DNA from: Catajapyx aquilonaris
Taxonomy: Eukaryota
Assembly: GCA_000934665.2 (NCBI GenBank)
Contig: JYFJ02004072.1
Coordinates: 1-34,923 of the forward strand
DNA length: 34,923 nt
Direction of reading: 5' to 3'
Part shown: one piece after another, positions 268-34,205 of the stretch
Numbering within the stretch: the stretch's first letter is position 1
Layout: each line of letters opens with the position of its first letter
Program-made: the position numbers and the translations under genes
Notes under the pieces: generated by a model
The model's input: the letters and a program-made list of their open reading frames with translations, nothing else
Databases searched by the model: none
Told to the model about the DNA's origin: nothing

Positions 268-1556
268 TATTGTATTCTCTAACGTGTACGTTTTATGGAA
301 CAGGTGGAGTATTTTCTTTCAGCATTATCATGTTGATAAACAACAGCTTGGTCATATGAAAGGTACTGTACTGTACATAATATGGAAACGTGGAAAACAC
401 GACGAAAGTTTTTTTCTTCCAGAGTTTGTTAAATATTTTGAAAAAATGCCACCATGCAAGTATACAGCCCTGACTGTAATGGTTATGAAGATAATATAGT
501 ATACCCTTCATAAGTTTACGCCCGGAAGTTTATGACTCTCCTTATGGATACAGGGGCAAGTGTTGCTCTACACCACACTCCAATAAAAATCTACTGTCAG
601 AGGTACCGGTGTGAGGCTGTGGGAGCTTCATATAATTATAGTCTTGTAAAGAGATTTTTTTAAACCATTTTACGCGGTGTAGGTGTTATAGCGTTAGAAT
701 CTGCATTACATTATACCTGCAAATGAAAGTTTAAACAGATGCGAATAATAGCGACTTTCTGTGTGGTTTGGTAATTGTTTGCAAACCACAAGCCTCCGCA
801 ACCTAGGCCCTATTTTTGCTCGGAATATTTACTGGGGCGTCATGTAGCCAGTGGCTTAGCTTATGTGCAAGCAGCGTAACTGTTGCAATGGGACCAACTG
901 GCCGAGGGGGTACTTACAAAATGTAAAACAAAATTAGCACGGACTTTTAGATTCCATTTTGCATTCCGGAGCGATTCTTGATGCTGTTTACATTTTTTTA
1001 AAAGTAGAGTCTGCTATATAGTCCTACACGTCATGTTTATACCTACTCGTAGTGGCAAAATTTCGCATTGTACTTACCACTAATTTCTTATTTTGCATAA
1101 TACTCTGAAGTTATTTTGATTCTCAAGCTTCTCTTTAATCATATAAATATATTGACGGATCTATTGTAAAAATAACGCATTCAGATGATAAACCTGGTCA
1201 GGTTATGAAGCTCAGTTGTTAGCAAAAATGCTATTTACTGCTGATGGAAAGTAATATAGATGGTAAATGTAACTTAGAAATATGCACAGTTGGTGACTCT
1301 GTTGGGTCATATCAATCTTGGAGCAATGACTTTACTTGCTTTTACTTGACATCCATGCAGACTTTCAAAAGGGAGTAAAAACACTTTGTTATACTAGGTA
1401 CACATTTCCCTGCTTTTTGTAGACTTCAAATCGATTTGTGTGCTCTTGTATACGGGGAAAAAACTCCGGAGAGAGTTCATTCCTAAGATACCTCCACGGT
1501 CTTAGAAGAATAGGTAGGGACACTCTCCGCCATCTTGCGTGCCGTTAGCCCTTCCC

Positions 1557-2157
1557 GCATTGGCGCTAGTACAGTATACCTGCAATGGAATCACGCTTGT
1601 GGAACTCATCGCTGCAGCCAGCCCACGGACACTACCCCTATCTTCTGGGCTTATCACCTGCCGAGGGGTTTTGCAGCGGTGGTCACCTGAGACCGCCACG
1701 AGACATTTCCCAGAGCATTTATGTGGCGACCCTACCGGACTAAGGCTGAACTTTATAGGTACGAAAGGGGAGGGCTACATTGGGGGGCCCAACATGGCCG
1801 CCGGCGGCCATGTTGGGCGAGCATGTAGCCCTCCCCTTTCGTACCTATAAAGTTCAGCCTTAGTCCGGTAGGGTCGCCACATAAATGCTCTGGGAAATGT
1901 CTCGTGGCGGTCTCAGGTGAGCACCTACTGCAAAACCCCTCGGCAGGGGGTGGGTGGGGAGTGACCTAACCTGAGTCTTCTACAACCATGGCTGCAGCTA
2001 TAGCGACTAGCGACCCTGACGGTACAACTATGCATTATCAACTAGCTCTCGATAGCGATACACCAAGATGCATAGTTGTACTGTCAGGATCGCTAGTCGC
2101 TATGGCTACAGCGAGTTCCACAGCGTGATTCCACTGCAGATATACTAGCGCCAAAGC
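1557..2157. mobile_element. Older foldback/MITE-like element whose left arm is interrupted by the 1619-1986 insertion
   Basis: Joining 1560-1618 (TTGGCGCTAGT...GGAATCACGCTTGTGGAACTC...GCTGCAGC) to 1999-2035 (TATAGCGACTAGCGACCCTGACGGTACAACTATGCAT) gives the imperfect reverse complement of 2068-2154 (ATGCATAGTTGTACTGTCAGGATCGCTAGTCGCTATGGCTACAGCGAGTTCCACAGCGTGATTCC...ACTAGCGCCAA). No clear TSD. Confidence 0.8.
1619..1986 (+). mobile_element. Short non-autonomous element with a ~290-bp internal palindrome (copy 1, full length)
   Basis: The palindrome spans 1657-1947: perfect IRs 1657-1676/1928-1947 (20 bp) and 1683-1780/1823-1920 (98 bp), plus a spacer-less 32-bp centre at 1787-1818. About 40 bp of unique sequence lies on each side. 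It is flanked by CATCGCTGCAGC (1607-1618) and CATGGCTGCAGC (1987-1998). A second copy is at 11811-12057. Strand is arbitrary. Confidence 0.9.
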
Positions 2158-3699
2158 TTTTTCTACTGGCCTGGGATATAAGTGTCCGGGGGCTAGATAC
2201 CTCTAACAACCTTCAAACATGCGCCGGATGCGCGACAAAAGATGAAGAACAAATAAACGTGTTTTAGGTCAGTTGTACCGTGATTTTTGGACACATTTTT
2301 GCCCAGTAACAAGTTGAGTTATAAAGTATTGAGTGAGATTAACAAGAACTAGCTTATCTCTATCTGAATATGGTTTTCTACAGAAACAGTGCTCTGGCCG
2401 TATATTTAATACGGACTAGACACTATAGAAAGGTTAACTAAATCATTATAAGTACTGTAGATTGAGAAGTAGCCTGACTGAATAATTTACTATCGTGGGT
2501 TTTTACTATTTCAAGACTACAAGAGATAAGTAAAATAGTATGCCTATATATTATAATAATTATATTTAATTCAGAACTTTAAGGCGTGGAATTCTAATGA
2601 AGAACGTACACCTTGGGATTTACATACTCTCAGGTGTATTACAGTAGCTAACAGTAGTTTTCAACTGCCTCTCAGTATTACAATTATCGACTCGACGCAG
2701 GTGAAAACGCATTTGAAACTTCCGCTTGTTAGTTACTAGAGAGTGATGGATGTCAACATTATTTGGACAGGAAAAGCATCATTATTTTGAAGAGCGTTCT
2801 TTTAATCCACTTAGGTTTATATCACTGTGAGCTTAATACTGAAGAGACTCTCTAGACATAGTCTATAATGACATTATTGTAGCCCGTGGCAAAAAAATGT
2901 TAAGGAAAAATTGCCCCACCATGTCTTGAACCTGATGAGAAAAGTTTATTTTGATTTTGTGCTGGAAAAGCCCTCTCCTATATTTTTTACTTCGGCGAAT
3001 AAAAAAATTTAATAACCCGCATGATGTGCACAAGCAAACTGCTTTTCATTTACGAGAATCATGATGAGAATATGTAGGTGATATACTTCCCCATGCCGCA
3101 ATTTCATCACGACGGTTACCTTGGAAATTTTATGGAATACGTTAATCCTAAATTTGAAAGCAAATTATAGTTTCTTGGCCCATTTCCTGGAAAATTATAA
3201 CGATATAGTTTGTATCCGGTCCACCCAGCCTCAAGAAGCATTACCCGTGTTCCAGAACATCTTCTGAGCTTCGGGCCGGCCTGTATTCCGCGGAAATTTT
3301 CAATTTATAAGGGCCATAAAGCAATATTTAGTGACGCCCATTCTAGACAGTAAACACATGGAGCCATAACTTTACGGGTAGTCCATCTTCGGAAAGGTAT
3401 TCTCACTTATAAGCCTGGGGGCTCGCTTCACAACTTTATTTTTTTATAGGTGTGCAGGTATACTGCTTTGTACAATAGGCTATCTCTAAAGCTGTGCTGA
3501 GAAGTGAGGTGGGGGTTTAGTGTGCCGAGAGAATTGAGAAAAGGCTGAATGAAGGGTCGTAAAATTTGCAACATCTATGCGGGACTATAGGAGGAAAAAA
3601 TATGGGCAGAGTTTGATAATAAAAAGTGTTTCGCCATGACACGAATTTTTTGTCATTCATGGTCATAACACCGGGTTTTCAGTAGAGTTCTGGCGTATT

Positions 3700-11650: not shown

Positions 11651-11810
11651 GGACTACCACCTACCTATAGGGTGCTCACACTTGTGACAGATTGCTCAGC
11701 AGGCTGTCAAAATGCTTATTGGCAATCAGTGCATACCCAGACCACTCTCATAACAAAAGTACCCCATCGTTTTATCTTAATGCAAACACTGTCCTAAAAT
11801 CCAGTCCATG

Positions 11811-12057
11811 GTTATTGAAGACTCAGGTTAGGTCACTCCCCACCCACCCCCTGCCGAGGGATTACGCACCGGGTGCTCACTTGAGACCCCCACGAGACAT
11901 TTCCCAGAGCTATCATGTGGCGACCCTACCGGACTAAGGCTGAACTTTATAGGTACGAAAGGGTGGCTACATTGGGTGGCCCAACATGGCCGGCGCCCGG
12001 TGCGTAATCCCTCGGCAGGTGATAAGCCCAGAAGATAGGGGTAGTGTCCGTGGGCTG
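11811..12057 (-). mobile_element. Second, inverted copy of the palindromic element, with most of one arm deleted
   Basis: Both unique termini match copy 1 in reverse complement (GAAGACTCAGGTTAGGTCACTCCCCACCCACCCCCTGCCGAGGG... and ...CTCGGCAGGTGATAAGCCCAGAAGATAGGGGTAGTGTCCGTGGGCTG). A perfect 12-bp direct repeat ATCCAGTCCATG flanks it at 11799-11810 and 12058-12069. A 24-bp IR (CCTGCCGAGGGATTACGCACCGGG) remains. Confidence 0.92.
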
Positions 12058-14259
12058 ATCCAGTCCATGTGAAGGCTTCTCGACACTTTGTTTTTGAAGG
12101 CTGAGGATGTCAGGCTGTGGTTCCGGACTGCCACACGTGTTTAGGCATGCAGTTTGAGCGATATATATGGCGGTTTGTTTTGGCAGTGGGCATTCGACTG
12201 GTAATATGACCTTAGGCTGCGGCTGTGGCAAAGCCGTCAACCATGAACCTCTCCAACACTTTTAATGTGGCTCACGCACATTAAAATTGCTTACACCTCT
12301 GTGACGCGTAATATAATGTATGACGGCGCGGCGTGGTGATGCTAACTCGTGAACGAGCCGTTTGAAACGATGAAAGCGTCCGTGATTATTTTGTCGATAG
12401 GCATGGCAAGTTAATTATTCCGTGTCACCTATAGGATATTAATATTTTACAAAATAAAACCTTGTAAGCTCGCCTTTGAAAAATATATTAGACCGCATGA
12501 TGGCCATGCATGTGATATAACCCAAAGCAACGCAGAGCTAACCGAATACATAACTAACAAAAAGGGTAGAATGAAAGAAATTATTAACGCACAGCATTTA
12601 ACGGTATGTTCGAATCCCCTTTAGGACCGACTGTCCCATGGGGATTTCTAAAGCTCGCAATTAAAACTAATGCAGGTGGGAAACCACAGCACCATGAATA
12701 ATTACACATATTTAAGCAACATCACAGCCATCAAATTCTTATGGCGATCTGTTAAAATGCATGGCAGGGATTTTTAAAAAATGGATGGATGAGAAAAGCG
12801 TTCCCATGTGCGAAAAGCGAACCTGATGCCAACTCTCACAAAACATGCACGTCGTTGTTGGTACATCAACATGTGCGACTACCATATCACCCCTGGTCCT
12901 CTTCTTTCTATTTGACTGAGTCCAGACGGATAGGACGTCAGGACGAATGCGTATGCTACCGTTATATTCATGTACGGTTGTACAAAAAAGCTAGTCAGCA
13001 ACGATGTGAATGTTGCAAGGCTGTACCGTCACCTCAGGTGAGTTCTGGATTCTGCAAATAATTTCTAGTTTTCCAGGTTTATCTGACTGTTCAGGCGCCC
13101 CTAACCATAATGTCACTCTCCTGAAAAAACCGTTGCATTGGCTGCTTCTGTAAACCATACCTGAACATGTGATGTTGCTTACCTACATAATATACGTGAT
13201 AGATATTTGGAACATTTTTCTCTCAACTTTTTAGCAACGCTGTTCTTTTCTACGTCACATTTGCAACGTGGTTCATGATGGGAATGTGACTGCATCGTGG
13301 ATTAGGTTGGCGAGTCTAAACATGTCCTGCACAAAGCTGCCCCACCGGCAACGAGCAGTGCAACTTTCGTGTCTGGGTGGTATGCTGTTATCACGCATAC
13401 TCGAGCGTAACAAATCGTAGTCTGTGCATTTAGGCTAATTAAAAATGCAAACCCCTCCAGTTGGCGGGATCCATTTCAAAAAAAGTACCACATCTTCTTT
13501 GATATTTTTGTAACGCTTAGCACCTTTTCTTTAGCCGAACGTTGCAGGAGCTCTTCCCCCGGTTTCCATTTCTGAGATTGGCATCACGGACGGAGTAATC
13601 TCGGTCGGTTGTTTTCATCCAGTCGGCACAAGTAAGATCACGTGATCCAAGCTGGGCGGTGAGGGCCACGCCTTTCAAAGCTAAAGGCCCGTATAGACGC
13701 CGGCGGAAATTTGAAGTGATTTTAGAATACTTCATCCTGTGTGTCTTGCTCCAATTTTCCAAATGGCTTTCTGATGAAATGTGGGATGCCCTCCAGTTGC
13801 CAACTGGCGCGCTTCCCATCACAGAGGTCACGCTTCTCGAATGGTTGGCTCGGGAGAGAAAAATCACCCGCTGCCCAATTGTACGAGTAGTGATGCGTTT
13901 TATAGTTGCCACCCGGAACGTCGTCCACAAATTACGTCCCTGACACGGCCACTGCTTCATAATTTTCAAACACAGAATCAAAAAATATTGTTGCGAGCGC
14001 TGATTTTCACTCGCACTTTTCGAAGAGCTTCCGGCCGCTCGTTCATTCCGGAGGATGGGGACACAATTTGGTTGACAACAACACGATAGGTTTCCATTAT
14101 AATCAGAGCGATATTACTTTTGTGGGCATGTGTTTTTTGTTGGTGAGGAGAATATACATGGTCATGGTTTATAAATAGTACAAACCTGCACTGTTTAAAA
14201 TACTTATAAGAATCATGGAACATTCTTCCTCGTTCTGCACATTTCTACAGCCATGAAAC

Positions 14260-14260
<1 letters not shown>

Positions 14261-14332
<72 letters not shown>
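14261..14332. repeat. (TAT)24 microsatellite
   Basis: Perfect trinucleotide run, directly visible. Confidence 0.98.
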
Positions 14333-15290
14333 GGGATGATGGTGTTTGAAACATACTGCTATAGAAAGTTATTGTTACCCACACCCGCCAATAACTAACG
14401 CTTTAATGTGGGTACTGTAAAGCGATTATGTAATCCCCCTGAGTTCTACAACTCACACATGACCTATGGGACCCAGAATTTGGCCCAAAGCGTATGTTCT
14501 GTAAGGACTGATGGTTATAGTTTACTGGGGCAGGTAGTGGGGGTTACAATATACATTATGTAAAAAGGGTTTACTCACATGCGATGAAACTTATTATTTT
14601 ATCAAAACAAATGTTTGTTACGCGGTGTTTACAGAGTCAGCTCTCTCATGTGTATGTGACATGTGGAAGGTATATTAGGTAGAGCCTACAGGCCCATGCA
14701 AATATCAAGTTCCTGACATCAACTTCTGTAGGGACAGGTTTAATTTGACATGTTCATTTAGTATATCATATTTTGATGTTTTGGCTGGCGAGTTTCAGGT
14801 TTCAACTCGCTGAAACTGATTTTATAACTTAATATTATGAAGTGTTTCATTCAACAGCAGTGCATACTAAACGCGAAAAAAAATGTTGAGTGAACTGGAG
14901 CCTGGAAATCTGTGGGATGTAGGAAAGTATGGCGTTTCTGAGCCAGCACTGTGTGAATGTTACATTCAGTTTGTGGGAGGCGACACATTTTAGTGGTTCT
15001 TTAGATTCATTGCCGGTACACTTTTGTTTCACTACGGCAGTATTTCAGACTTGTAATTTTAAATGGAACAGCATATTTGTGCAGTAATATTGTACAAGAC
15101 TGCTCCAACCAGGTTCCAACAAGGAATATCCCCCTCTTACAAAAATTCGGCTTATTTTAGATGATTTCCTGTATTCAGAAAGTAATACTGTATTAAGTTA
15201 GGCTGCTTGTAGTAGATCAGAGTACAGTACTTCTTAGTCACTGGAAATCATCAATATAATTCGAATATTGATAAGCAGTGGTTCTTGCTC

Positions 15291-15306
15291 GTTGGATCAC
15301 CCTGTA
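15291..15306 (-). mobile_element. Solo Tc1/mariner-type TIR end (TA-CAGGGTGATCCAAC)
   Basis: GTTGGATCACCCTG-TA; the same terminus recurs at 27072-27086 and 33075-33090. Confidence 0.55.
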
Positions 15307-15459
15307 TACTCTCATACGAGTGCAATACTAAGCCGATGAAATATAGGCTATCCTGTGTTTCAAAAGTCAGATTATGTCAGCATCAGTGGAATTCAGTGGA
15401 CGCTCCCTTTCTAGATAATAGTCATATTTTAGGACTGAAGTCAAAATAAGCTACCCATC

Positions 15460-15493
15460 GTATTTATTCACCCATTGTATTTATTCACCCATT
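15460..15493. repeat. 17-bp tandem duplication (GTATTTATTCACCCATT)x2
   Basis: Directly visible perfect direct repeat. Confidence 0.9.
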
Positions 15494-17400
15494 AAAGTTT
15501 CTTCACTCGAGTGCCGGTTATATTTTTAACCACAATCATCATGCCATTTTGTGATTTTACCTGTAGCGACATTCTCGTATGCAGGTGATGCATTGGGAAC
15601 ATTCTTCAGTAGCATGTACGCAAAGCAGTTAAACGGAGCTTCAAAAATGCTTGGAACTCTGTTGAGGTAGTGGACGCGTTTGTTTCCTTCACCCCAAAAT
15701 CCGTCCACAGTCTGTACTCTGGTTACTCCGTCCGTCAGAGGAAGCGGAAAGGGGAATGTTACACTGCGTTCCAGCTGATACCCACAATGCGACTATAAGT
15801 GCAATTTACATAGCATTTGTGTGAGCAGTGGCGAGTGGTTGCCTGTAATGCTACTGGGACTGAAGATCGATATTGGGATATTGACTACAATAGCGATATT
15901 TACCAACTGCTGGGGCGACTAATCTGAGGACTTGATAATATCGGGCTGCAGGACTGGAGGGAGGAAAAGGGACCCATTTTTCCCTTAAAAGGAAGGAACC
16001 ATATCGAAGTCAATTTCTTCGGGTTTCTAGGGCGGTTGGTTCTTTGGGGTTAAAATGACCATGTTACTAGCATGATATTGCGGTCATTATAATGGAGAAA
16101 TATTTATTTCTTCTACGATGTTGGAAGGGCTTACTCTCATCAGCTCCAAATGGCGAGCAGCCACTGAGTGGGAGCGGTTTAGAAAATGAAATATGGACAA
16201 TTTAATTGACAATTAGTGCTCCCACTGATGCGATGCAATGATTGCAGACCATTGTACCAATGTACAGTATAAATAAGGGCTTATGGGACATGTGTGAGGG
16301 GAGGCTTGGTAATGATCTGACAAGTGAGTGACGAACATTCACTGTATGCATTCTCATAATGGAATATAATTTGTTTGTAGAGAACGTATTTGAACGAGAG
16401 AAAAGCAAACTCCTATTGTCTATTATGGCGTTCAAGTTCCTTAGCTTACCTTGACACAAAAGTTGGATACATATACAAACTATAGGGCAAATGCAGTATT
16501 AGTGCAGCACATTCCTCACATGTGGAGAATGAGGAATGTCCACCAGGATGTAAAAGAAAAGTGTCAGCAATCATGTTTGTGCTATATACTGCGTGATTAA
16601 TACGGCGAGTAGCTTATTATGCGACTATAAATTATGAATTGAACAGCACCATTAATAATATAGCGCACTTGCCTAAAAGTAGGCCATATCTGGAAAGTCA
16701 GTCCTCCGTGATGCCATAATTAAAATGCCGGTGTACTGCCGGGAGTTGCTAACGACATTCGAAATGCTAAGGCCTAAGAGCGGATAGGATTATGCACTAT
16801 TTCATTCTGTAACATTGCAGATAAGACAATAAATAATAAGTTGTTCTATAGTAAAAATTGAGCACAGTCTGTGTAAGTAGGAACACGCCGCTCCGTGAAG
16901 TAAATGTAAACATATACTATACAGTATTTCCACTGCCAGAGGCAAGGTCCGGGTTGATGTGAGGTAATATCTGATGCTCCTAACTCCTTATCGGATGTAG
17001 TACACTGTGCGAGTAAAAGGGGACCTGCCGAGCCTGTAATTTCACCACCTTTCATCTTTCCGCACACTCTTACTTGGGGCATTCAAAACTTCTGGTCGTT
17101 GATGAATAGGAAGCATGTACTGTATACTCCCCAAGTTGTGCCCCTCTTGTAACCCGCAATACTGGTGGTGACGCATTTCACTTCCTTTCTTGGCCCCTTT
17201 TTCACTGAAAGTCAAGTCTGATCCGTAGTTTCCTAACTACCCAACTGTTTCCGAATCGATTGGTACAGTTGAAAATTTTGAAAAGTTAGTACTCTCAAAA
17301 TGAAGTGTACGTCCCTGGCACAAAAACTCGGTATTCATAACTTTGCAAGAGACTTGAGCCTGCAAGTAATAAATCCCAAGCCTTGCCTACTTCCCTCCTC

Positions 17401-17432
17401 TTCCTTCCTTCCTTCCTTCCTTCCTTCCTTCC
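17401..17432. repeat. (TTCC)8 microsatellite
   Basis: Directly visible. Confidence 0.95.
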
Positions 17433-20400
17433 TACCAACCTTCCCCGATTAATGCGGGCAGAGCAGAAGCGACAGCAGCATGCTATAGCCAAGTCAGATT
17501 CCTGTAGAAACGGGACAGAGAGGAATTGGTAAAGTCTGCATGAGAAGGAGGGAATTCATTAGAAGGCGAAATCCGTCCAATAGACCGCTCTTCACCCTTG
17601 TAAATCCCTCCAAGATATAGGAAGGGCTGTTGGGTGGCGAGTGCGAAAATTCCCGTGCATTTTGAACCGCAAGCCGACAGCGGTGTTAATGAGTGATTCC
17701 TGGTTCTTTTTTTTATTTTTCGAATAGTAAAAGGGCGGGCCCAAATCGGGAGTTGCCCGAGGCGCTTTTCCTGCTGCAAGAGCCCGGAAATGACTCTCTT
17801 CCAACACTTGCGTTATTATAAAGTTCAAATTGCGACGGGAATTTCCAGTCTTTCAATAGTTGCTGCTAGTCATATTGCAAGTGACGTGGGTGTGAACGAA
17901 TCGTTCAAACTTACGCAGTACTTTATTCCAGTGGAAGTAGAAAAGTCTCGGTGAATGAATATATTTCTTGCGAAATGATATTTGGAGTCGTTCATATAGT
18001 CAGGACCACTCGTCGATTATTTTTTTTAAATGTAGATTTGTAATTTTTTATTCGTGATTGAGATACACTTCATTGGCAAAAGGGCACTGGATATGTGCAT
18101 TTCAAGGTACTAAAATTACTTCTAACTTCTGTGTACCGTAGGCTCAATAAAACCTGCTCTCCGCAGCCACATTACAGAAATATTTTACTGTTCATCATTT
18201 AGTTTTGGGAATATTATTCTCAAACTGATATATATTTTTCATCGTAAATGGTATGCTGGAGTGACAATCTGTTGTGATCCCAACCCGTAGCTTATAAATG
18301 TGTCTTGCTCCTGCTGCACTGAAAGAGAGGGACTGCTGTGCTACAGAATACATGACAAGATGTGGATGACAAGATAAATTGTCGTTGGCCTCTCTATCTA
18401 GATAAAACTGAGAATTTGAAATTTTGAAGGAGACATGGATTGATGGAGGTTTTTGTGTTGGATGCGCAATGAAAAGAGCATGGAACCCTATGGTCCAGAG
18501 CCTCTGTCACGACCTAAGCATCCATTGGGATATAATATATGTGGATCGTCTGAGAAAAGCGTTATAGAGGACAGAATTTAAAGAGCGAGTTTAGTTTATC
18601 TCAAGGTGAATGATATGCTAATGCCCGCATGTAAATAGGGGCACAATATACCAAGTTTATCGTCCTTATCGTATTTAATCAGAGAGATTTATTTGATAAA
18701 ACATTTTCGTGATTGTTTGATTTTCATATGAACCCACTTATGTAGTTTTCAATAAGTTTAGCAGTCGGTTAGATGTTTTAGTTGTTGTTCCTTTTTAAAT
18801 TTGCATAGGTTTACATTACTTCAACTATGTAGAATACGGTCGCTGAATTAAAAACCTAAACCTTATATGTGCATGCACCGGAACTTTCCTACAGTGCCGC
18901 AGTGACACCAGCCTCATAAACGATCTATGAATTAATTACATGTTTTGGAACCAAACCAATAAACACAAGCTGAGTAAACGTTACTCTGCATTCAGGTGAG
19001 CGGAACGTCCTACATATGGCTGTCAGGTAGTGACATATTGAGTACACATGTAATGTGTGAACATTAATAACGAGGCATTTATCGCTACTGATTTAGACGC
19101 CAGACATATGACGTTACGCCTAGTGTGGTCGGGTCACTGTGTAATTTAGCAAATCGTAATGTAGAATAAACATTGCTGATGTATGTTGTGTCAAAACGAG
19201 ACTAATTACTCACGCACATCTACACTCCATCATCTTTTATCTGCATAATCGGCACTAGGCCTATGCCTCAGCTGTTAGGCTTCGCACAAATTATTATTTT
19301 TCACCAACTTTTGATTAGCCCCCAGTATTTGATTGAAATCACAAGTTGCTTAAACCGCAGGCGTCTACATGTAACTGATTCCTAGTGAAGTATAGGCCCC
19401 CACTATTGATGTGACAAATATTCCAGCAGGAAGATCCCATAATCTTGTTGCACAGTCGAGTTCACCAAGTTGTCGGAGTGGAAGCTGCAAAGGCATAATC
19501 TGTGGGCCCCGCTTTTCATTACCGCCTGTAGCTTCTACATTACAGACCTTTTGCAATAATAATAATGCCCCCTCTGCATCGACTTTATAGACGTCGACAG
19601 GTACTTACGTTTCGCTACGGATCTGGTTCTCTAATCCCAGTGTATGGACCTCCGAGGCAAGAGGATTATTTATTCTTGTTTTCATGTTAACACGTGCGTG
19701 TCATCCTATTAGCGTGGTTAACACTGATTCATTTGGACGGTATTGTTAAACCCAACAAGGGCGAAAGTCATATAAAAATGATGTCGGTCGCAGCTTGCAT
19801 TTTAAAGCAATAAACGTTTACAAAATATAATCCAATGCAGGTTACAATTTCGATACAATCCTGTTGTAAGAGGATTTCAAAAACCTCTGGTGGATTTGGG
19901 TAGCAAGTCAAGGACACAAGCCCTGCATGGAGTATAGAGACAACAATAAAGTTTCGGAGAATCTAATGTCAACTGATGAAACCAGGAACACCAGTGCAAA
20001 CAGTCAAAGGGAGGATAGAGAAAGGATTTTTTTGTACTGGTATATAGTGTTTGCATATGCCCTGATTGATGTCGTCTGTCGGTTTATCTTGGTACTAGTG
20101 TAACACTAACATTTTCATTACCCTTAGAACGTATTTGCTATGGATCTAAATTGGTCGCATTTTCATTGCCTCTATATAGTGGAGGGTTCTCTTGAGAGGC
20201 AACATTGGTCACGTGGTAAAGCTCAGCTAGTGATTAGCTACAATTCCTATAAGCAGCCAATAGAATTGACTGATATGAATCATGTGGCCAGTAGGGGTGT
20301 CAGTGCTCTCTCAAAGTAAGTTGGGCTTTAACTATGAAATAATTTAATTCTTTTTTTGCAGAATGCGCAGTAGTGTAAGTGAAATTTTGTGTCGTAAGGA

Positions 20401-22890
20401 CGCCAAAATACCAGCACAAAATATGTGACGTGATAATACACATTAGTTATATACCGTACTAGAAAAAGCGAGAATGTCAGGTACAGAAGTGGAAAAATCC
20501 TTGCAGAAGAAAATGTTTCAGTGAAACCTACAAGAACAAGTGCCCTCTCGACCCACGCGAACGTTGAAAACGAGGGCAATCAATTAATAAGTGTTTCACC
20601 TCAAAACGTCGTCTCCACAGGGATCTCAGCCCACGCCGATCCTCATCACGGTGAAGGAGATGATATCCGTGGTCAAGAGGCTATGACGATACGAGTACCA
20701 CTAACGCAGACCATGCAGTCAATACCGCATGTTATATATTGTACAGCAGAATGAAAGAGCAGAATTGACAGTGCCAGCAAAATACAAAAGTAATCTACGC
20801 ACTAAACTGAACCTATATCCCACAATAAAATGGAAACGCTAATTACAATCGCAATATAATATTATAGTGTCATAAATTACGAATCAATTGGCCATGGCAA
20901 TGATCATAAATGGTAATTAAATTGTTGATTCATGCGAACATATATAACTACATATTTTTTATATGGCAATGTAGGTCATCATTTACTTGTCAATGGCTGC
21001 AGGCATGAACAGATCAGTCCCGTGACCGCATGCATAATGATGCGAAGATCGATCGTGACTCAATCAACCGCATGAATATGTATCATTCTTGTAGTACATA
21101 TTGTAACTACAAATAGTCACCCATCAACAGTTTTTTTGCCCATTTTACCACTTGGACTCTGAATGTAGTAAATAAGTTAGTGTCGCCTTCACCCTCTTGA
21201 TTGCCACAAATCATAGCATTAGTCGTAATTGCCCCCTAGCACTTTCCGTGTCCTGCTCCGTGCATTCGAAGCAGGGCAACATGTAACCGACTGCAATTTG
21301 CCAGATGACAACGCTTACAAACTCGATATAAGCTATTTATAATTCATTCGATTGCTGGGACCGTGCCTGCTTGTCTGTCTGCAAATTTTTTTTCCAGGAG
21401 AGTAGCTATGTGTACAGTGCAATGCAGGCAGCCTGATGACCAGCTAAAAGTTTTCAATTCCGCAGCGTCGGCTTCATGAACTATGGCCCTCCGATGTGCT
21501 TCAACCAAGTAATTTTCTCTGATGGTGCCGCACTGCAATAACTCCCGAATTAAACCATGTTTTTGAATGCTCATACTCTCTGGTCCCCGTGTGCGTGCGT
21601 GTATATATTTGGCAGTAGCCTTCATGAGAGTGATGTGAAAATGGGCGCCATAATTTCGGAACGCAAATTGGGTTAATTCAACAATAGAGTTCTTTTTTGG
21701 GGGAGGGTGGGTGGGAGTGTTTTCCGGAAGGAAAAGCGTCGGATTTGGATAGTGCATGCAGTGACATTTCTACGTGTATTGTTATACCACTGCTGCTGCT
21801 CATTAGCTCTTGTTTGAATAAAAATGTCACGAGGCCATAGTGTGAGCCTACCCTGGCCTTCGAAGGTGAATAATCATCATAATGGCTAAAGTTAATTTTT
21901 TGCGTTAATTTTTTTCCTGAATATTTTACTTTCATTTGGATCACTTCCTCGTAATATTAATTGTATGCGAATAGCCTTCACGAACAAGGAACATGTCACT
22001 TTTGATAGAGTCTTGTTATTGAATTTTGTCCTCTCACTTTTCTCTCCTACTTTTATCTCGGATCATAGGCCTTTGACGAGAGATGCTTTGCATACTACGG
22101 TTAATTTTCCATCAAGATGAACTCGGCTTCGAAACTCTTAAGTTCGCGTTTCTTTTTAAAGTTCATATTTTTTGAAAGAACTGCTTGGTTCTTTGATGTC
22201 GAAGGTGCATTAAAGAAGTGAGCACTTCAAACAAAAATAACTTTCTATTGCGCAAGCGGTCATTATTTTTATTTTGCTGATTTGCCAGCAGTTACGCCGA
22301 GTTTGAAACTTCACGTCAAAAGTAGCAAGGATAGCTGGCATATATTCGATTCGAAGAGAACGGTATATACAGTTCGCCCTGTACGGATTTTCTCTTCGAA
22401 AATACGGCAGGACCATAATCAAAAGAACGAAAGCAGCCTGGCGCAATCCCCCACTGCAAAGAGCGCCAACTAAGGATTATCTAAGTAAACATACGGATCA
22501 AGTTCACCAGCCAGCTTGAGGCTTCCATAAATTCGACTTATACTTGTATGCTTTGTCTGCAGCTCCATTTTATCTGCTACTTGCGCCAAATGCGGACGAA
22601 TTAGCCGGTCGCTTTTGTAAGCTGTTGGTCTGGGAGAAGAAAGCTGTGCGTTATCCGGTACAGGTGAATCTGATAAAACGAGGAGCACAAAATCTGCCAT
22701 TTCCAATCATCCTCTCGTTGGCCTGGAGACCGTAAACTTTGAAACAGCCCCCCCGATTCCTTTTTTATCAAGCAAAAGTCTGAAGAATCACACAAGAAGA
22801 AGAAGAGGATGGGCTAAAAGCAAAGGGACTTCAACTGCTCGCTTCCGTCCTTCAATGGCGATTCAACCTCCTCCCCTTCGACCTCCCCCA

Positions 22891-23864: not shown

Positions 23865-23916
<52 letters not shown>
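23865..23916. repeat. (CT)26 microsatellite
   Basis: Directly visible. Confidence 0.98.
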
Positions 23917-27086: not shown

Positions 27087-30045
27087 TACAATAATGAATG
27101 ATATCTTACTTTTAGCTCTTCCCGTGTTCTACATTATGTGTTAAAAAGATAACCCGAGTCTAACAAAGAATATTGCTACACAACAGAAATGATGTCCAGC
27201 CGTCCACCCACCATCTCCCTAAACAATGTAAAACATGAGAATGTCAATAAAAGTGTTCCCCACCGTTAACCTGACATTGTTAGAGGTATTCAAACAATCT
27301 CTAAACTAAACAATCTCAAATGACACTACCGCAAGTGTCTACTTGGCAGTTTCACTGTGTAGCATTAGAGAGGAAAAAGTGGTCAATATTATTTCCACAC
27401 TGTCCAGGCACAAACTGGGAAGTATCCATTAAATTCACACAATGAAGCTCACTGGATGTATAGTAAGTGACCACCCAACTTGAAAAATAGCATTTAAAAA
27501 TTTCCTAATTAATATTATGCGACATTAATAGTCATTGGCCTCAGTATTGTTTTGGAATGATTCCTTCTGCTTGAATCAGAACTGATCAGCATATAATCTA
27601 ATCCATTCTAGTCCAAACCTGACCACCTTACAGACTACAGCGTAAACGTTAGAGTACGCGGACAAACGCGCATTGCAGTATGTGGCTTACCGTAATCGGC
27701 TAGCCGCGTAGATTCTGGCGTTTAATTTCTTCTCGGTTACTCACTTGTTGGCCGTATCTCTACCCGGGGACTTAGGTTTGCGCAATTGTCCTGACATTTA
27801 CGTACAGCACACTGGCAGGACTGTGGAAGCTTAAACTGTCCTCGGAAATGATTATCAGTCGCATTAAATATGTCGCCGGAAGGGTCGGCTCTAACACTTT
27901 TCGTGATTTGGAATTCAGCCATCCCAACTCCACGGGTAGCCTAGAAAATAGTTTCCAATAAAAAAAGGGCCAGCATGAGACAAAATATCATGTTGAGCCC
28001 CGCCGTATAACACACCAGTAACAGTTTGCGCATAAGAAACGCAAAAGAGTTATGTCGCAGGGTGGGAGAATGCGAAAACTTTGGCCAAAACGCAGCTGAT
28101 ACTGCAGTCACCCATCCGGAATAACAATAAAGAAAGGTTCCAGGGGCCATTAGGTCCCATCTGGAGCTCATTGCCACGTCTCTCAAAGCCCCGTCCACGA
28201 AGGTCAGCTGCGGCCTTCTGGAATAATATTCTCGATTCCAAGCACGAGTTGCACTTGCTGTTCTCTCAGCATCCTGTGGAGAAAGTGGAAAAAATTGCTG
28301 GAAGACAAGACCGGAGTGATGTTATGGTGCTATTCGTGATTTAGGCTCTCCAGGAAACTCCCCCTTCCAAAAAGTTCACTAATGCACCTTGTGAAAAAGT
28401 CTGCTCATGGGACGCTCAAGGAAATAAGCAAGCAGGGGGATTACAATTTACACTCGTGTTTACAAGGACTAGCTGCATTCCAAAAGAGCAGAGATTCAAA
28501 CGAAACATTGCGACAAGTTGCAGTCCTTTTCAATGGTACTTGATTAGCATGGAAAAAGGGGAGCGAGGGGACCATTTTGTGCCAAGTTGGAACTTGAATG
28601 GTGTATAGGCCAAGCTTTTTTTTATGTGTCAAAATTGTCTTAAGAAAAGGATATATACGGTTTTTCTTCTAAAGGTGTCGTGGGGAACAAGTGAGTCTAA
28701 TTGGGCACTTAATCGTTGGGATGAGTGCCCGTTGGTTCTGCGTCTCTCGGGAATTAATACAAATTGCAGAAGGGTCAATATTGGCTCTCGTGATTGATGA
28801 GGGTACAGCGGACCTTTAAGGACTTTTATTGACCAGTGCCAACTTGATTAATTCTTTTGTGCGCTTACAGGAAGTCGTTCGTTATTAGACTATGCCTCAT
28901 GGCCTTAGTTGCCTTGGATACCTCGATCAAGTGAGTAGTTAGCTTCCACTCACAGTAGGCACTTGTTATCTGCGTGGATGGATAAATATTATGCGATTAA
29001 ATTATTTCCGGTGTACCTGTATGGTAGATGAAACAAACCATTGTGCATAGGCTATAGCTGAAGCCCTATTACTTGATAAAAGTAACTAATGCAGCCCAAT
29101 AACTGGTCACGTAATTTAAACAATGCAGTCCTGTAATGGTTTCCACCAGAAATTTCAGTTAGTGGTTGATTTGTATCATGTTATCAGCAAGCTGTGGCCA
29201 TAACTCGCCCAGTAACAGGCCAACAATCATAGCGGTATCGTTGCTAAACATTCAATTTAACGGTTTTAACTTGTACTCTTGGTGTCTTACCGCTAAGTGT
29301 TTTACAATTTCTCTTTTCAGTTTTTATAAATATCAATTTTACATATGAGTGATAGAAAATTTATTATACTGTATAGAAATGTAATAGTAAAAATATTGAA
29401 ATGCGGCTAGGACATACAATATTACTGTAAAATCTGTTGGCATGAAGTCGTGCCTCAATTTATTTTCCAAGATTGGCCACTTATATCTCCACTCGAAGTG
29501 TTCGTGTCTTAGTGATTTGCAACCTGATTGCAGAATTATTAGCGCAGATTCTGCAAGTCTTGCAAGCAATCTCAGTCGTTCCTATTGTCGGTGGGAATTT
29601 GGATTGCAATATTTTGTGAAAACCTCATTTTCAGCTAACAGAAGTCTCCCAATTCCCACCTCCCATTTCTTGTAAAAAAAAAGGGAAGAAAAGCGCGCAA
29701 CACGCTTACTTTGGTAAGAAAAAGGCGTCGGCCGGCAAATAAATATTCGCTGAAGCGAGTTTCCTATTCCGTGATTGATATTCGGTGGGGAGGAGGCAAA
29801 AGGCTTCCATTCCAAGCAGCCATGCATCCTCATTCGAGATGGCAAGAACATGGCGTGACTATGAAAAAGGAAAGGGGGCGTCCTTAACGCAACACACCAC
29901 TTGCTCTCAAATCCACATAAAAGATTTGCACATCAATCCTCATAAGTATCGCCACCTTCCAACTATTCCGCCTGTTACACTAGTAAAGTTAGATACGAAC
30001 AAATTAAGCACAAAACAGACAGATGTGCAGTGGTTCAGTGCATTA

Positions 30046-30280
30046 CAATCGTCTCAGGTTATCCGCGGTTTGAAAATATGAAAGAAATATTAATAAAACG
30101 TTTTAAAAATCAATCGTGTGTTTTAATTATAGTACACATTACTGACTTGTTATAATTACCCTATTGTTAACTGTTTTTGATGTATTAATGTGAATAACTT
30201 GGTAAATTGGCTTATACACGGGTTTTACTTATCAGCGGAGAAAGGCTTGGGCTAAATTACCGTGGATAACCTGGGGACTG
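30046..30280. mobile_element. pogo/Tigger-like MITE (~235 bp) with TA target duplication
   Basis: The left end reads TA-CAATCGTCTCAGGTTATCCGCGGT and the right end ACCGTGGATAACCTGGGGACTG-TA (reverse complement TA-CAGTCCCCAGGTTATCCACGGT). The interior is AT-rich. Confidence 0.75.
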
Positions 30281-33090: not shown

Positions 33091-33703
33091 AATGGAGGTG
33101 AAAATACAGACAGCGGGACACACCAGCAATAGTGGAAGCATAATAAAAGTTGCCTTTGTTCTCTTCTGATCATGACTAATGTTACTGGACGCATGATGGT
33201 GACCAACGTGCCTGAAGACGCACTTATAATATGTGGCAAGAGCAGATTCAGTGGCAACGGAGGCATCAGAATGGGCCTCAGGTGACAAGCAAGAGCAAAT
33301 GAATAATAACATCGTAGTCATCGGTCTAAGACTAAGTGAAAAGTGAGAGTAGGCATTATCTCTCTACAGTGCCCGACTGGTATGTCGGATTCGGTCGGAT
33401 TACAGCATTAGCAACTACTGCATGTCCTTCTCTCCTCTAGCCCATATGACAGAACCGTGCATTCTTGTGTTGTCAAAAGTTTATCCTGCGCTTTCGACTG
33501 CCATACCAGGCAGAAAAGCATAAAAATATATATTTTAAAAATATGCGACTGGACGTCTGGTCGCTCTGAAGCTAATTATACCAATGCCCCAGTTGCCCTT
33601 TCCACGGCGACTGTCAACGTCATAGCCAAATAGGGTAAACTGTACAGTGATACCTCACCATACAGTGATGGCCCACTGCGCCTTGGTTATTTAAGAAATA
33701 GGC

Positions 33704-34205
33704 TGGTCATGGCTGCAGGAGGAGGACAGAAGTTGTCTATTGTGTGGAGAGGGAAGCGAGACGATGGAGCACATAGTCAGAGATTGCAGGGAGATGGAAA
33801 AGGAAAGGACGGATTGGCTGCAGGGGGTGGAACAAAAGCGTGGGGCCGACGTCTACCAATATGTGAATGATGTTAAAAAAGGGGGCACTATGTAAATACC
33901 TGCACAGTCTAGTTAAAAAGAGAAAGGACAAGGTTTTGGAGAAGATAGGGGAGGGGGTTGTGTAGGCTGGACCGAGGGAAGATGGAGAAAAAAAGGGGAT
34001 AGAGGGAAGACAGGGGAGGTGTGGTGGAAGAGATGAAGCGAGGGAGAAGAAAGATATGTATAGTATTGTAGTATTGTACTGTATTCTAGTGAAGTAGTGT
34101 GTTGTATTATGTTTCGCAAAAAAAATTTTTGTAGAGGGTCGGCCAAGCGGCACGAGCCGCAGACCGACCCTGGAATAAATAAACGCCTACAAACAAACAA
34201 ACAAA
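33704..34205 (+). mobile_element. 5'-truncated LINE (possibly RTE-X-like): CCHC zinc knuckle, 3'UTR, stem-loop, AATAAA and (ACAA)n tail
   Basis: The frame from 33704 reads WSWLQEEDRSCLLCGEGSETMEHIVRDCREMEKER (C-x2-C-x8-H-x4-C at 33734-33787). A purine-rich 3'UTR follows, then a GC hairpin at 34135-34171, AATAAATAAA and an ACAAACAAACAAACAAA tail. Candidate TSD AAATAGGC is at 33696-33703 and 34203-34210. The clade call is from memory. Confidence 0.85.

Follow-up and report, generated by a model that had tools for sequence, protein, structure and literature searches.

Anatomy of a very abundant palindromic repeat with unlike ends and 8-bp target duplications in Catajapyx aquilonaris, probably a non-autonomous DNA transposon of P or hAT type

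A stretch of 34,923 nt from Catajapyx aquilonaris (GenBank assembly GCA_000934665.2, contig JYFJ02004072.1, positions 1 to 34,923; hereafter the window) carries a short repeat that encloses a long palindrome between two dissimilar ends and is flanked by direct repeats which can be read as 8 or as 12 bp long. Where does this element end, what does it duplicate on insertion, and to which class of mobile DNA does it belong? An earlier note, made from the letters of the window, had offered two readings of the flanks, namely a 12-bp target duplication at sites beginning with CATGG, or an 8-bp duplication around an element with CAG...CATG ends that favors CATG-like flanks.

Two copies of the family (family A) are present, about 10 kb apart and in opposite orientation, and share their unlike ends, as had been claimed. 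Copy A1 (1619..1990, + strand; 372 nt) runs from CAGCCCACGGACACT to TCTTCTACAACCATG, and copy A2 (11807..12057, - strand; 251 nt) has both ends of A1 and lacks the left palindrome arm. The 5' end CAGCCCACGGACACT is common to the two copies, and the 3' end of A2 reads TCTTCAATAACCATG. Identity between A2 and A1 amounts to 54 of 57 positions at the 5' end and to 170 of 192 aligned columns over the 3' part. A low-stringency BLAST search of the window with the element returned A1 and A2 only, and scans of the window for the end motifs, allowing up to 3 mismatches, returned these two, the element that hosts A1 (see below) and otherwise matches at chance level (7 against 6.6 expected, and 5 against 4.6). 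An exact 20-mer of the 5' end was found at no locus in metagenome contigs, and an exact 21-mer of the palindrome at none in metagenome, prokaryote genome or viral contigs.

A1 consists of three parts: (i) a 5' unique end of 38 nt (1619..1656, + strand), beginning with CAGCCCACGGACACTACCCC, with GGACACT at element positions 9-15 and TCTTC at 23, (ii) an internal palindrome (1657..1947; element positions 39-329) whose arms, at about 1657-1801 and 1802-1947, meet near 1801/1802, and (iii) a 3' unique end of 43 nt (1948..1990, + strand), ending in GGGGAGTGACCTAACCTGAGTCTTCTACAACCATG with the tip CATG, in which AGTGACC, the inverted partner of GGACACT, lies 25-31 nt and TCTTC 11 nt from the tip. 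The palindrome gives a self-match of 291 nt at 94.6%, its arms agree in 138 of 148 aligned columns, and its DNA fold has -194 kcal/mol (z = -32). Measured from the tips, GGACACT lies 8 nt in at the 5' end and, inverted, 23-24 nt in at the 3' end; TCTTC is common to both ends in direct orientation. The two ends do not form an inverted repeat: when the 5' end is aligned locally with the reverse-complemented 3' end, the best match begins only at element position 38, in line with the earlier observation that the inverted repeats are subterminal and start about 40 bp in.

The absence of an open reading frame, a poly-A tail and Pol III boxes, noted before, was also borne out. The 7 stop-to-stop frames over A1 and A2 gave no Pfam match, and neither copy has a tRNA, 5S or 7SL head, an Rfam family at gathering score, or an A-rich or microsatellite tail. 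At E <= 1, Rfam returned only sub-threshold matches to miRNA hairpins on both strands, and the miRNA reading was rejected, as scores below half to two thirds of the gathering scores, on both strands, indicate a generic hairpin likeness. Both palindromes (1736-1867 and 1988-2115) match several miRNA-precursor models in this way on both strands, for instance at 50 bits for a gathering score of 78 and at 54 bits for one of 110, and such palindromic repeats could seed false miRNA calls. A candidate 5' stem, AGCCCA/TGGGCT, was dropped as it is not kept in the element that hosts A1. The outer stem of the palindrome is of GGGGTTTTGCAGCGGTG type in A1 (1669-1683 / 1926-1940) and of GGGATTACGCACCGG type in A2 (11860-11876 / 11993-12008), and the A2 type forms a subfamily among the contigs described below (loose ends at 1678 and 1925). 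Because the outer stem differs on both arms at once and the A2 type is seen in contigs, the two arms appear to change together, either through homogenisation or because the hairpin has formed anew more than once.

A1 is nested inside a second element (B) of a related palindromic family, that is, one family has inserted into its relative, a point absent from the earlier note. B occupies 1495..2195 on the - strand and measures 701 nt, or 321 nt without A1 and the A1 duplication, with the ends TAGCCCCCGGACACT...TCTTCTAAGACCGTG. In its own orientation it is flanked by GAGGTATC at 1487..1494 on the 3' side and at 2196..2203 on the 5' side, the repeat extending to 9 bp when positions 1486 and 2195 (one ambiguous base) are counted. 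The interiors of A and B are unrelated, and both end types are common to the two families: the 5' ends are equal in 13 of 14 aligned bases (first 15 nt of A1), and the 3' ends form a 39-nt alignment that continues through ACC(A/G)TGG. The geometry of GGACACT is likewise alike, at position 9 from the 5' tip in both and at 25 (A) or 24 (B) from the 3' tip. In the frame that B defines, A1, A2 and B all start with YAGCCC and all end with CC(A/G)TG, and since the 3' alignment runs through ACC(A/G)TGG, the terminal CATG of family A, like the CGTG of B, belongs to the element. The right arm of B, furthermore, is a paralogous empty site for A1, in which GGAACTC-GCTGTAGC-CATAGCG is uninterrupted and the 8-mer occurs once, while the left arm reads ...GCTGCAGC-A1-GCTGCAGC-TATAGCG.

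Just upstream of the A1 duplication, the left arm of B holds three extra bases (ATC, 1608-1610) that are absent from the right arm. They could be an ordinary indel, of which the arms have others nearby, or be linked to the insertion.

Abundance and boundaries were assessed on contigs of four runs, matched to positions 1400-2300 of the window at a likeness of at least 80% (834-1153 contigs per run); the runs are not independent, as they come from one sample, which may be the source of the assembly. Summed contig depth, a rough proxy and not a copy number, was 18-37 in the single-copy flanks over the four runs. It went from 117-204 in the bin 1586-1616 (181 in run X1) to 13,242-22,737 in the bin 1617-1647 (20612 in X1), and from 19,775-54,782 at 1958-1988 (43732 in X1) to 1,016-1,684 at 1989-2019 (1662 in X1). 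The A1 region stands at about 600-1,500 times the depth of the single-copy flanks and is bounded on either side by an abrupt step, and since summed depth is not copy number we call the family very abundant and give no copy number. Steps are also apparent at the limits of B, where depth in run X1 changes from 31.8 to 4307 between the bins 1462-1492 and 1493-1523, and from 235 to 29.7 between 2175-2205 and 2206-2236; B is a repeated element too.

At least 16 contigs of run X1 match A1 through position 1991, that is through CATGG, and then diverge (agreement 0.42), so that CATG is conserved together with G as the first duplicated base. Among the matches listed, 14-17 contigs per run depart from A1 behind position 1947, where the 5' end follows in reverse complement (25 of 30 letters agree, by our own count), from which it follows that relatives with ordinary inverted ends, CAG...CTG, exist. 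Also among the matches listed, a diverged 3' end was seen in 8-9 contigs of runs X3 and X4, and single contigs represent internal-deletion derivatives, such as one in which 1676 is joined to 1969. Symmetric-ended relatives and internal-deletion derivatives are both typical of DNA transposons.

Of the changes that the contigs show relative to positions 1400-2300, C>T and G>A (11-13 each) are more frequent than any other (1-7 each), which is the pattern expected from the decay of methylated CpG in old repeats. In the plurality consensus of the 16 contigs behind position 1991, 7 letters are followed by CATGG again and then by letters faintly like the 5' end; this recurrence could reflect further insertions at a distance of exactly 8 bp, which is predicted for P, or be noise at an agreement of 0.42.

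Exact 8-bp direct repeats lie at homologous boundaries in all three elements, a small number: GCTGCAGC for A1 (identical at 1611..1618 and 1991..1998, + strand), GACTGGAT in element orientation for A2 (12058..12065 on the 5' side and 11799..11806 on the 3' side, - strand) and GAGGTATC for B. Two random 8-mers of the window are identical by chance at a rate of 5e-5. The 12-bp flanking repeats earlier reported at both copies proved exact only in A2 (CATGGACTGGAT), where CATG precedes the 5'-side 8-mer at 12066-12069, and reach 11 of 12 positions in A1 (CATCGCTGCAGC against CATGGCTGCAGC). The 4 bases upstream of the 8-bp repeats are CATC in A1, CATG in A2 and GTTA in B; at their own 3' tips, the three carry CATG, CATG and CGTG, respectively.

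With their flanks, the only three target sites available in full read ATC-GCTGCAGC-TAT (A1), ATG-GACTGGAT-TTT (A2) and TTA-GAGGTATC-TTA (B). Position 1 of the duplication is G in all three, position 8 is C in two, and the flanks partly fit the target motif of the P element. According to the excerpted text of Linheiro & Bergman 2008 (PMC2577343), the preferred target of P is a 14-bp palindromic motif, ATRGTCCGGACWAT (ATR, 8 bp, WAT), and the terminal ...ATG and CAT... of the element restore the flanks of this motif after insertion. As the P tips reproduce the motif flanks, a P insertion at an optimal site likewise shows a repeat of ATG together with the 8 bp. Behind G1991, the 16 contigs of run X1 give a plurality consensus beginning with TCCAGAC CAT, or GTCCAGAC when G1991 is included; it differs by one letter from P's GTCCGGAC and agrees with hobo's GTNCGNAC in 5 of its 6 fixed letters (PMC3276498, in excerpt). 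At an agreement near random (0.42) and from one run, this flank consensus is weak evidence. The hobo target motif (PMC3276498) is similar to the palindromic motif of P, with its GC core and AT flanks. Of the older hobo and hAT target, NTNNNNAN (PMC3276498, in excerpt), T at position 2 occurs in none of our three sites and A at position 7 in one, a weak comparison at n = 3.

How long, then, is the duplication? If it were truly 12 bp long, CATGG would be required at the start of the target and the element proper would be CAGCCC...CTACAAC. The exact 12-bp repeat of A2 and the 11 of 12 matching positions of A1 speak for this, and the 7 of 8 upstream bases that match CATG in these two copies, with a chance of about 4e-4 by our own arithmetic, form an excess that could reflect a longer duplication in family A. 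Against it, B has GTTA upstream where its own 3' tip is CGTG (1 of 4 bases) and its repeat does not exceed 8-9 bp, the alignment of the A and B 3' ends runs through ACC(A/G)TGG, and the sharing of CATGG by 16 contigs of run X1 would call for an absolute target rule. The empty-site arm also lacks ATC before GCTGTAGC, although this is a weak point, as indels are common in the arms of B, and the extra upstream matches are explained by the precedent of the P element. We consider a 12-bp duplication very unlikely and, of the two readings of the earlier note, retain the second: the empty site in the right arm of B, the end types of B and the contigs that continue through CATGG place CATG inside the element and leave a duplication of 8 bp. 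The apparent 12-bp duplication is, with the same good probability that we attach to our explanation as a whole, an 8-bp duplication joined to the element's own CATG tip, which would resemble the preferred upstream flank much as in P. That explanation, which we hold to be likely, is that family A is a non-coding, non-autonomous, high-copy DDE cut-and-paste element of P or hAT type, nearly devoid of terminal inverted repeats (TIRs) and making 8-bp duplications; as such it belongs to a familiar class, unusual though its appearance is, and does not represent a new kind of element.

The same features bear on origins of other kinds. A SINE-like retroposon, inserted by target-primed reverse transcription with its 3' CATG annealing to the nicked target, would produce duplications of variable length, and the asymmetric ends, the high copy number, maximal flanking repeats of 8, 9 and 12 bp and the microhomology between 3' tip and upstream flank all agree with it. 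Yet the copies have neither a Pol III-type head nor a tail, a single consistent 8-bp frame fits all three elements, relatives with the 5' end inverted on both sides cannot be promoter-driven retrocopies, and a near-perfect hairpin of 290 nt is a poor template for reverse transcription; we regard this origin as highly improbable. Asymmetric termini and a palindrome near the 3' side would equally suit a non-autonomous rolling-circle element derived from a Helitron or Helentron. Helitrons, however, are not known to make a duplication, insert at AT or TT and end in 5'-TC...CTRR-3', whereas all three elements here have exact 8-bp duplications and other ends, which makes a rolling-circle origin extremely improbable. 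More has to be said about an undescribed or rarely seen superfamily, Zisupton/KDZ-like or other, whose enzyme would pair dissimilar ends and share the 8-bp duplication by chance. A and B conserve both unlike ends together with the unequal spacing of the motif, and a full-text literature search with the end sequences and their reverse complements gave, among the papers listed, no published match beyond an apparent chance match in an unrelated muscle paper. But the 8-bp duplication, the CA...TG tips, the pattern of G......C with AT flanks and the CAG...CTG relatives are all ordinary for P or hAT. Zisupton makes 8-bp duplications and has long TIRs and a Zisupton transposase; the duplication length fits family A, which is without TIRs, and the Zisupton/KDZ likeness suggested earlier found nothing in particular in its favor. 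P-type elements with TIRs of 3 bp are, moreover, on record (PMC3698922, in excerpt). A new superfamily keeps a place among the candidates because no master copy has been seen, but we think it decidedly unlikely. As two families keep unlike ends in which the common motif is set at 8 nt and at 23-24 nt from the respective tips, a cut-and-paste system resembling the 12/23 rule may also be conceived, which would pair a short-spacer with a long-spacer end, need no TIRs and possibly use an enzyme of an undescribed transposase lineage; this, too, is unlikely. A literature search on TIR-less elements with 8-bp duplications returned only a review of P elements and general texts, and a paper on the curation of tardigrade transposable elements offered no tabulated diagnostic features. 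A search for the tip codes CANRG and YARNG of the Repbase classification turned up nothing relevant in the literature, and these codes were not relied on.

For the DDE cut-and-paste element of P or hAT type, the class of enzyme is read from duplication length and tips only, as no autonomous copy, transposase gene or empty allele was seen. We infer the type of transposase, the roles of the motifs and the dispensability of the palindrome as follows. A DDE transposase encoded elsewhere would move family A in trans, cutting the target with an 8-bp stagger, with a preference for G at the first position of the duplication and for flanks rich in A/T; the tips joined to it would be 5'-CA(G)... and ...(CA)TG-3'. 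The unlike ends would probably be read as a left and a right end; each carries GGACACT, in inverted orientation and at 8 nt (5' end) or 23-24 nt (3' end) from its tip, and also TCTTC in direct orientation. The internal palindrome would be cargo, dispensable for the function of the ends.

As regards class, family A resembles miniature inverted-repeat elements (MITEs) in being short and non-coding (251-372 nt), in its high copy number with homogeneous ends and in its fixed 8-bp duplication, and the A copies are without terminal inverted repeats. The duplication agrees with the 7-9 bp of the P superfamily, of which the conserved tips are 5'-CAT...ATG-3'; here A has CAG at its 5' tip and CATG at its 3' tip, and B has TAG and CGTG. 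The 8-bp duplication agrees with hAT as well, as does the 5' tip CAG; the 3' tip of the A copies is not CTG, and symmetric relatives exist. The 5' tip (CAG/TAG) is hAT-like and the 3' tip (CATG/CGTG) P-like, so the symmetric tip rule of neither superfamily holds, and the tips match in inverted orientation only as CA...TG in A and as A...T/G in B, less than in any family cited here. Because both superfamilies make 8-bp duplications with similar target motifs, we do not separate P from hAT. The CATG tip, the mimicry of the flank by the tip, the end-specific internal spacing and the precedent of P and BuT5 in the Drosophila repleta group would favor P, and the CAG/TAG 5' tip and the symmetric CAG...CTG relatives favor hAT.

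The closest precedent is provided by the P elements and the MITE BuT5 of the Drosophila repleta group, for which the excerpted text of Rius et al. 2013 (PMC3698922) gives 3-bp TIRs, sub-TIRs of 16-17 bp and duplications of 8-9 bp. As described in that excerpt, BuT5 resembles family A in being non-coding, with almost no TIR (3 bp, against CA...TG in family A), short subterminal inverted repeats, 8-9-bp duplications and an interior unrelated to the ends, features on account of which it long went unclassified (PMC3698922). It differs, on the same account (PMC3698922), in its size of about 1 kb, its tens of copies, the lack of a long central palindrome and the discovery of a master P element. Its sub-TIRs are also near-equally spaced, at 32 and 30 bp (PMC3698922, in excerpt), whereas the motif of family A lies 8 and 23-24 nt from the tips and the copy number is far higher. 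The architecture, which the earlier note had called atypical, is indeed unusual for a MITE, yet stays within the range known from P and BuT5. P-MITEs with 8-bp duplications are also described in Anopheles (PMC1562414, in excerpt).

The P element of Drosophila melanogaster shares with family A the 8-bp duplication and the 3' tip ...CATG. The flank of its target, ATR-G......C-WAT, to which our three sites conform in part, is mimicked by the element's own tip (excerpt of PMC2577343), and its left and right ends differ in internal spacing, 9 against 21 bp (Ghanim et al. 2020, PMC7776569, in excerpt), as the ends of family A also differ. P, however, has perfect 31-bp TIRs and CATG at both tips, unlike family A with its 5' tip CAG/TAG and no TIR. 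hAT MITEs and hobo share the 8-bp duplication, the 5' tip CAG/TAG and CAG...CTG ends such as the relatives show, and hobo's GTNCGNAC is near GTCCAGAC (excerpt of PMC3276498), whereas the 3' tip of family A is CATG instead of CTG, a TIR of 10-25 bp is missing and NTNNNNAN was not seen in the three sites. The Foldback-like Galileo elements of the P superfamily are comparable in their hairpin-shaped, non-coding, multi-copy derivatives in an arthropod, with palindromic bodies prone to internal deletion (PMC4168063 and PMC3573991). In Foldback-type elements, however, the inverted repeats reach the tips, whereas in family A unlike sequence of about 38 and 43 nt separates the palindrome from the tips. 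The duplications of Galileo measure 7 bp (PMC3698922, in excerpt) against 8 bp here.

Since annotation pipelines find MITEs by their terminal inverted repeats, a family whose tips match only as CA...TG would escape them or stay labelled 'unknown'. Now that its limits and its 8-bp footprint are defined, family A, at roughly a thousandfold depth, can be masked and classified, and we see the most useful outcomes in the revision of the ends and of the duplication length and in the unequal motif spacing that A and B conserve. On our preferred explanation, family A would be a second example, outside Drosophila, of an element with a tip that imitates the flank of its favored target, so that the duplication seems longer than it is. 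Should a master copy come to light, the unequally spaced end motif would offer a simple natural system for the discrimination of left and right ends by a transposase.

The window as a whole has a GC content of 39-46% and the character of gene-poor animal DNA. Only 10 stop-to-stop frames reach 120 aa, and the 116 frames of at least 65 aa (109, plus the 7 over the A copies) contain no convincing Pfam domain and no transposase that might serve as coding partner; the window likewise holds no tRNA and no Rfam family at gathering score. Three sub-threshold Pfam matches were recorded in these frames (HemY_N, ADAM_CR and zf-RVT). The weak match to the ADAM cysteine-rich domain lies at 29946-30152 (+ strand; E 0.0017, 19.2 bits against a cut-off of 29.4) and that to zf-RVT at 33695-33892 (+ strand; E 0.00058, 20.9 bits against a cut-off of 27.5), and they may represent an exon and a retroelement remnant, respectively. 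Perfect microsatellites occur at 14261-14332, (TAT)24, and at 23865-23916, (CT)26.
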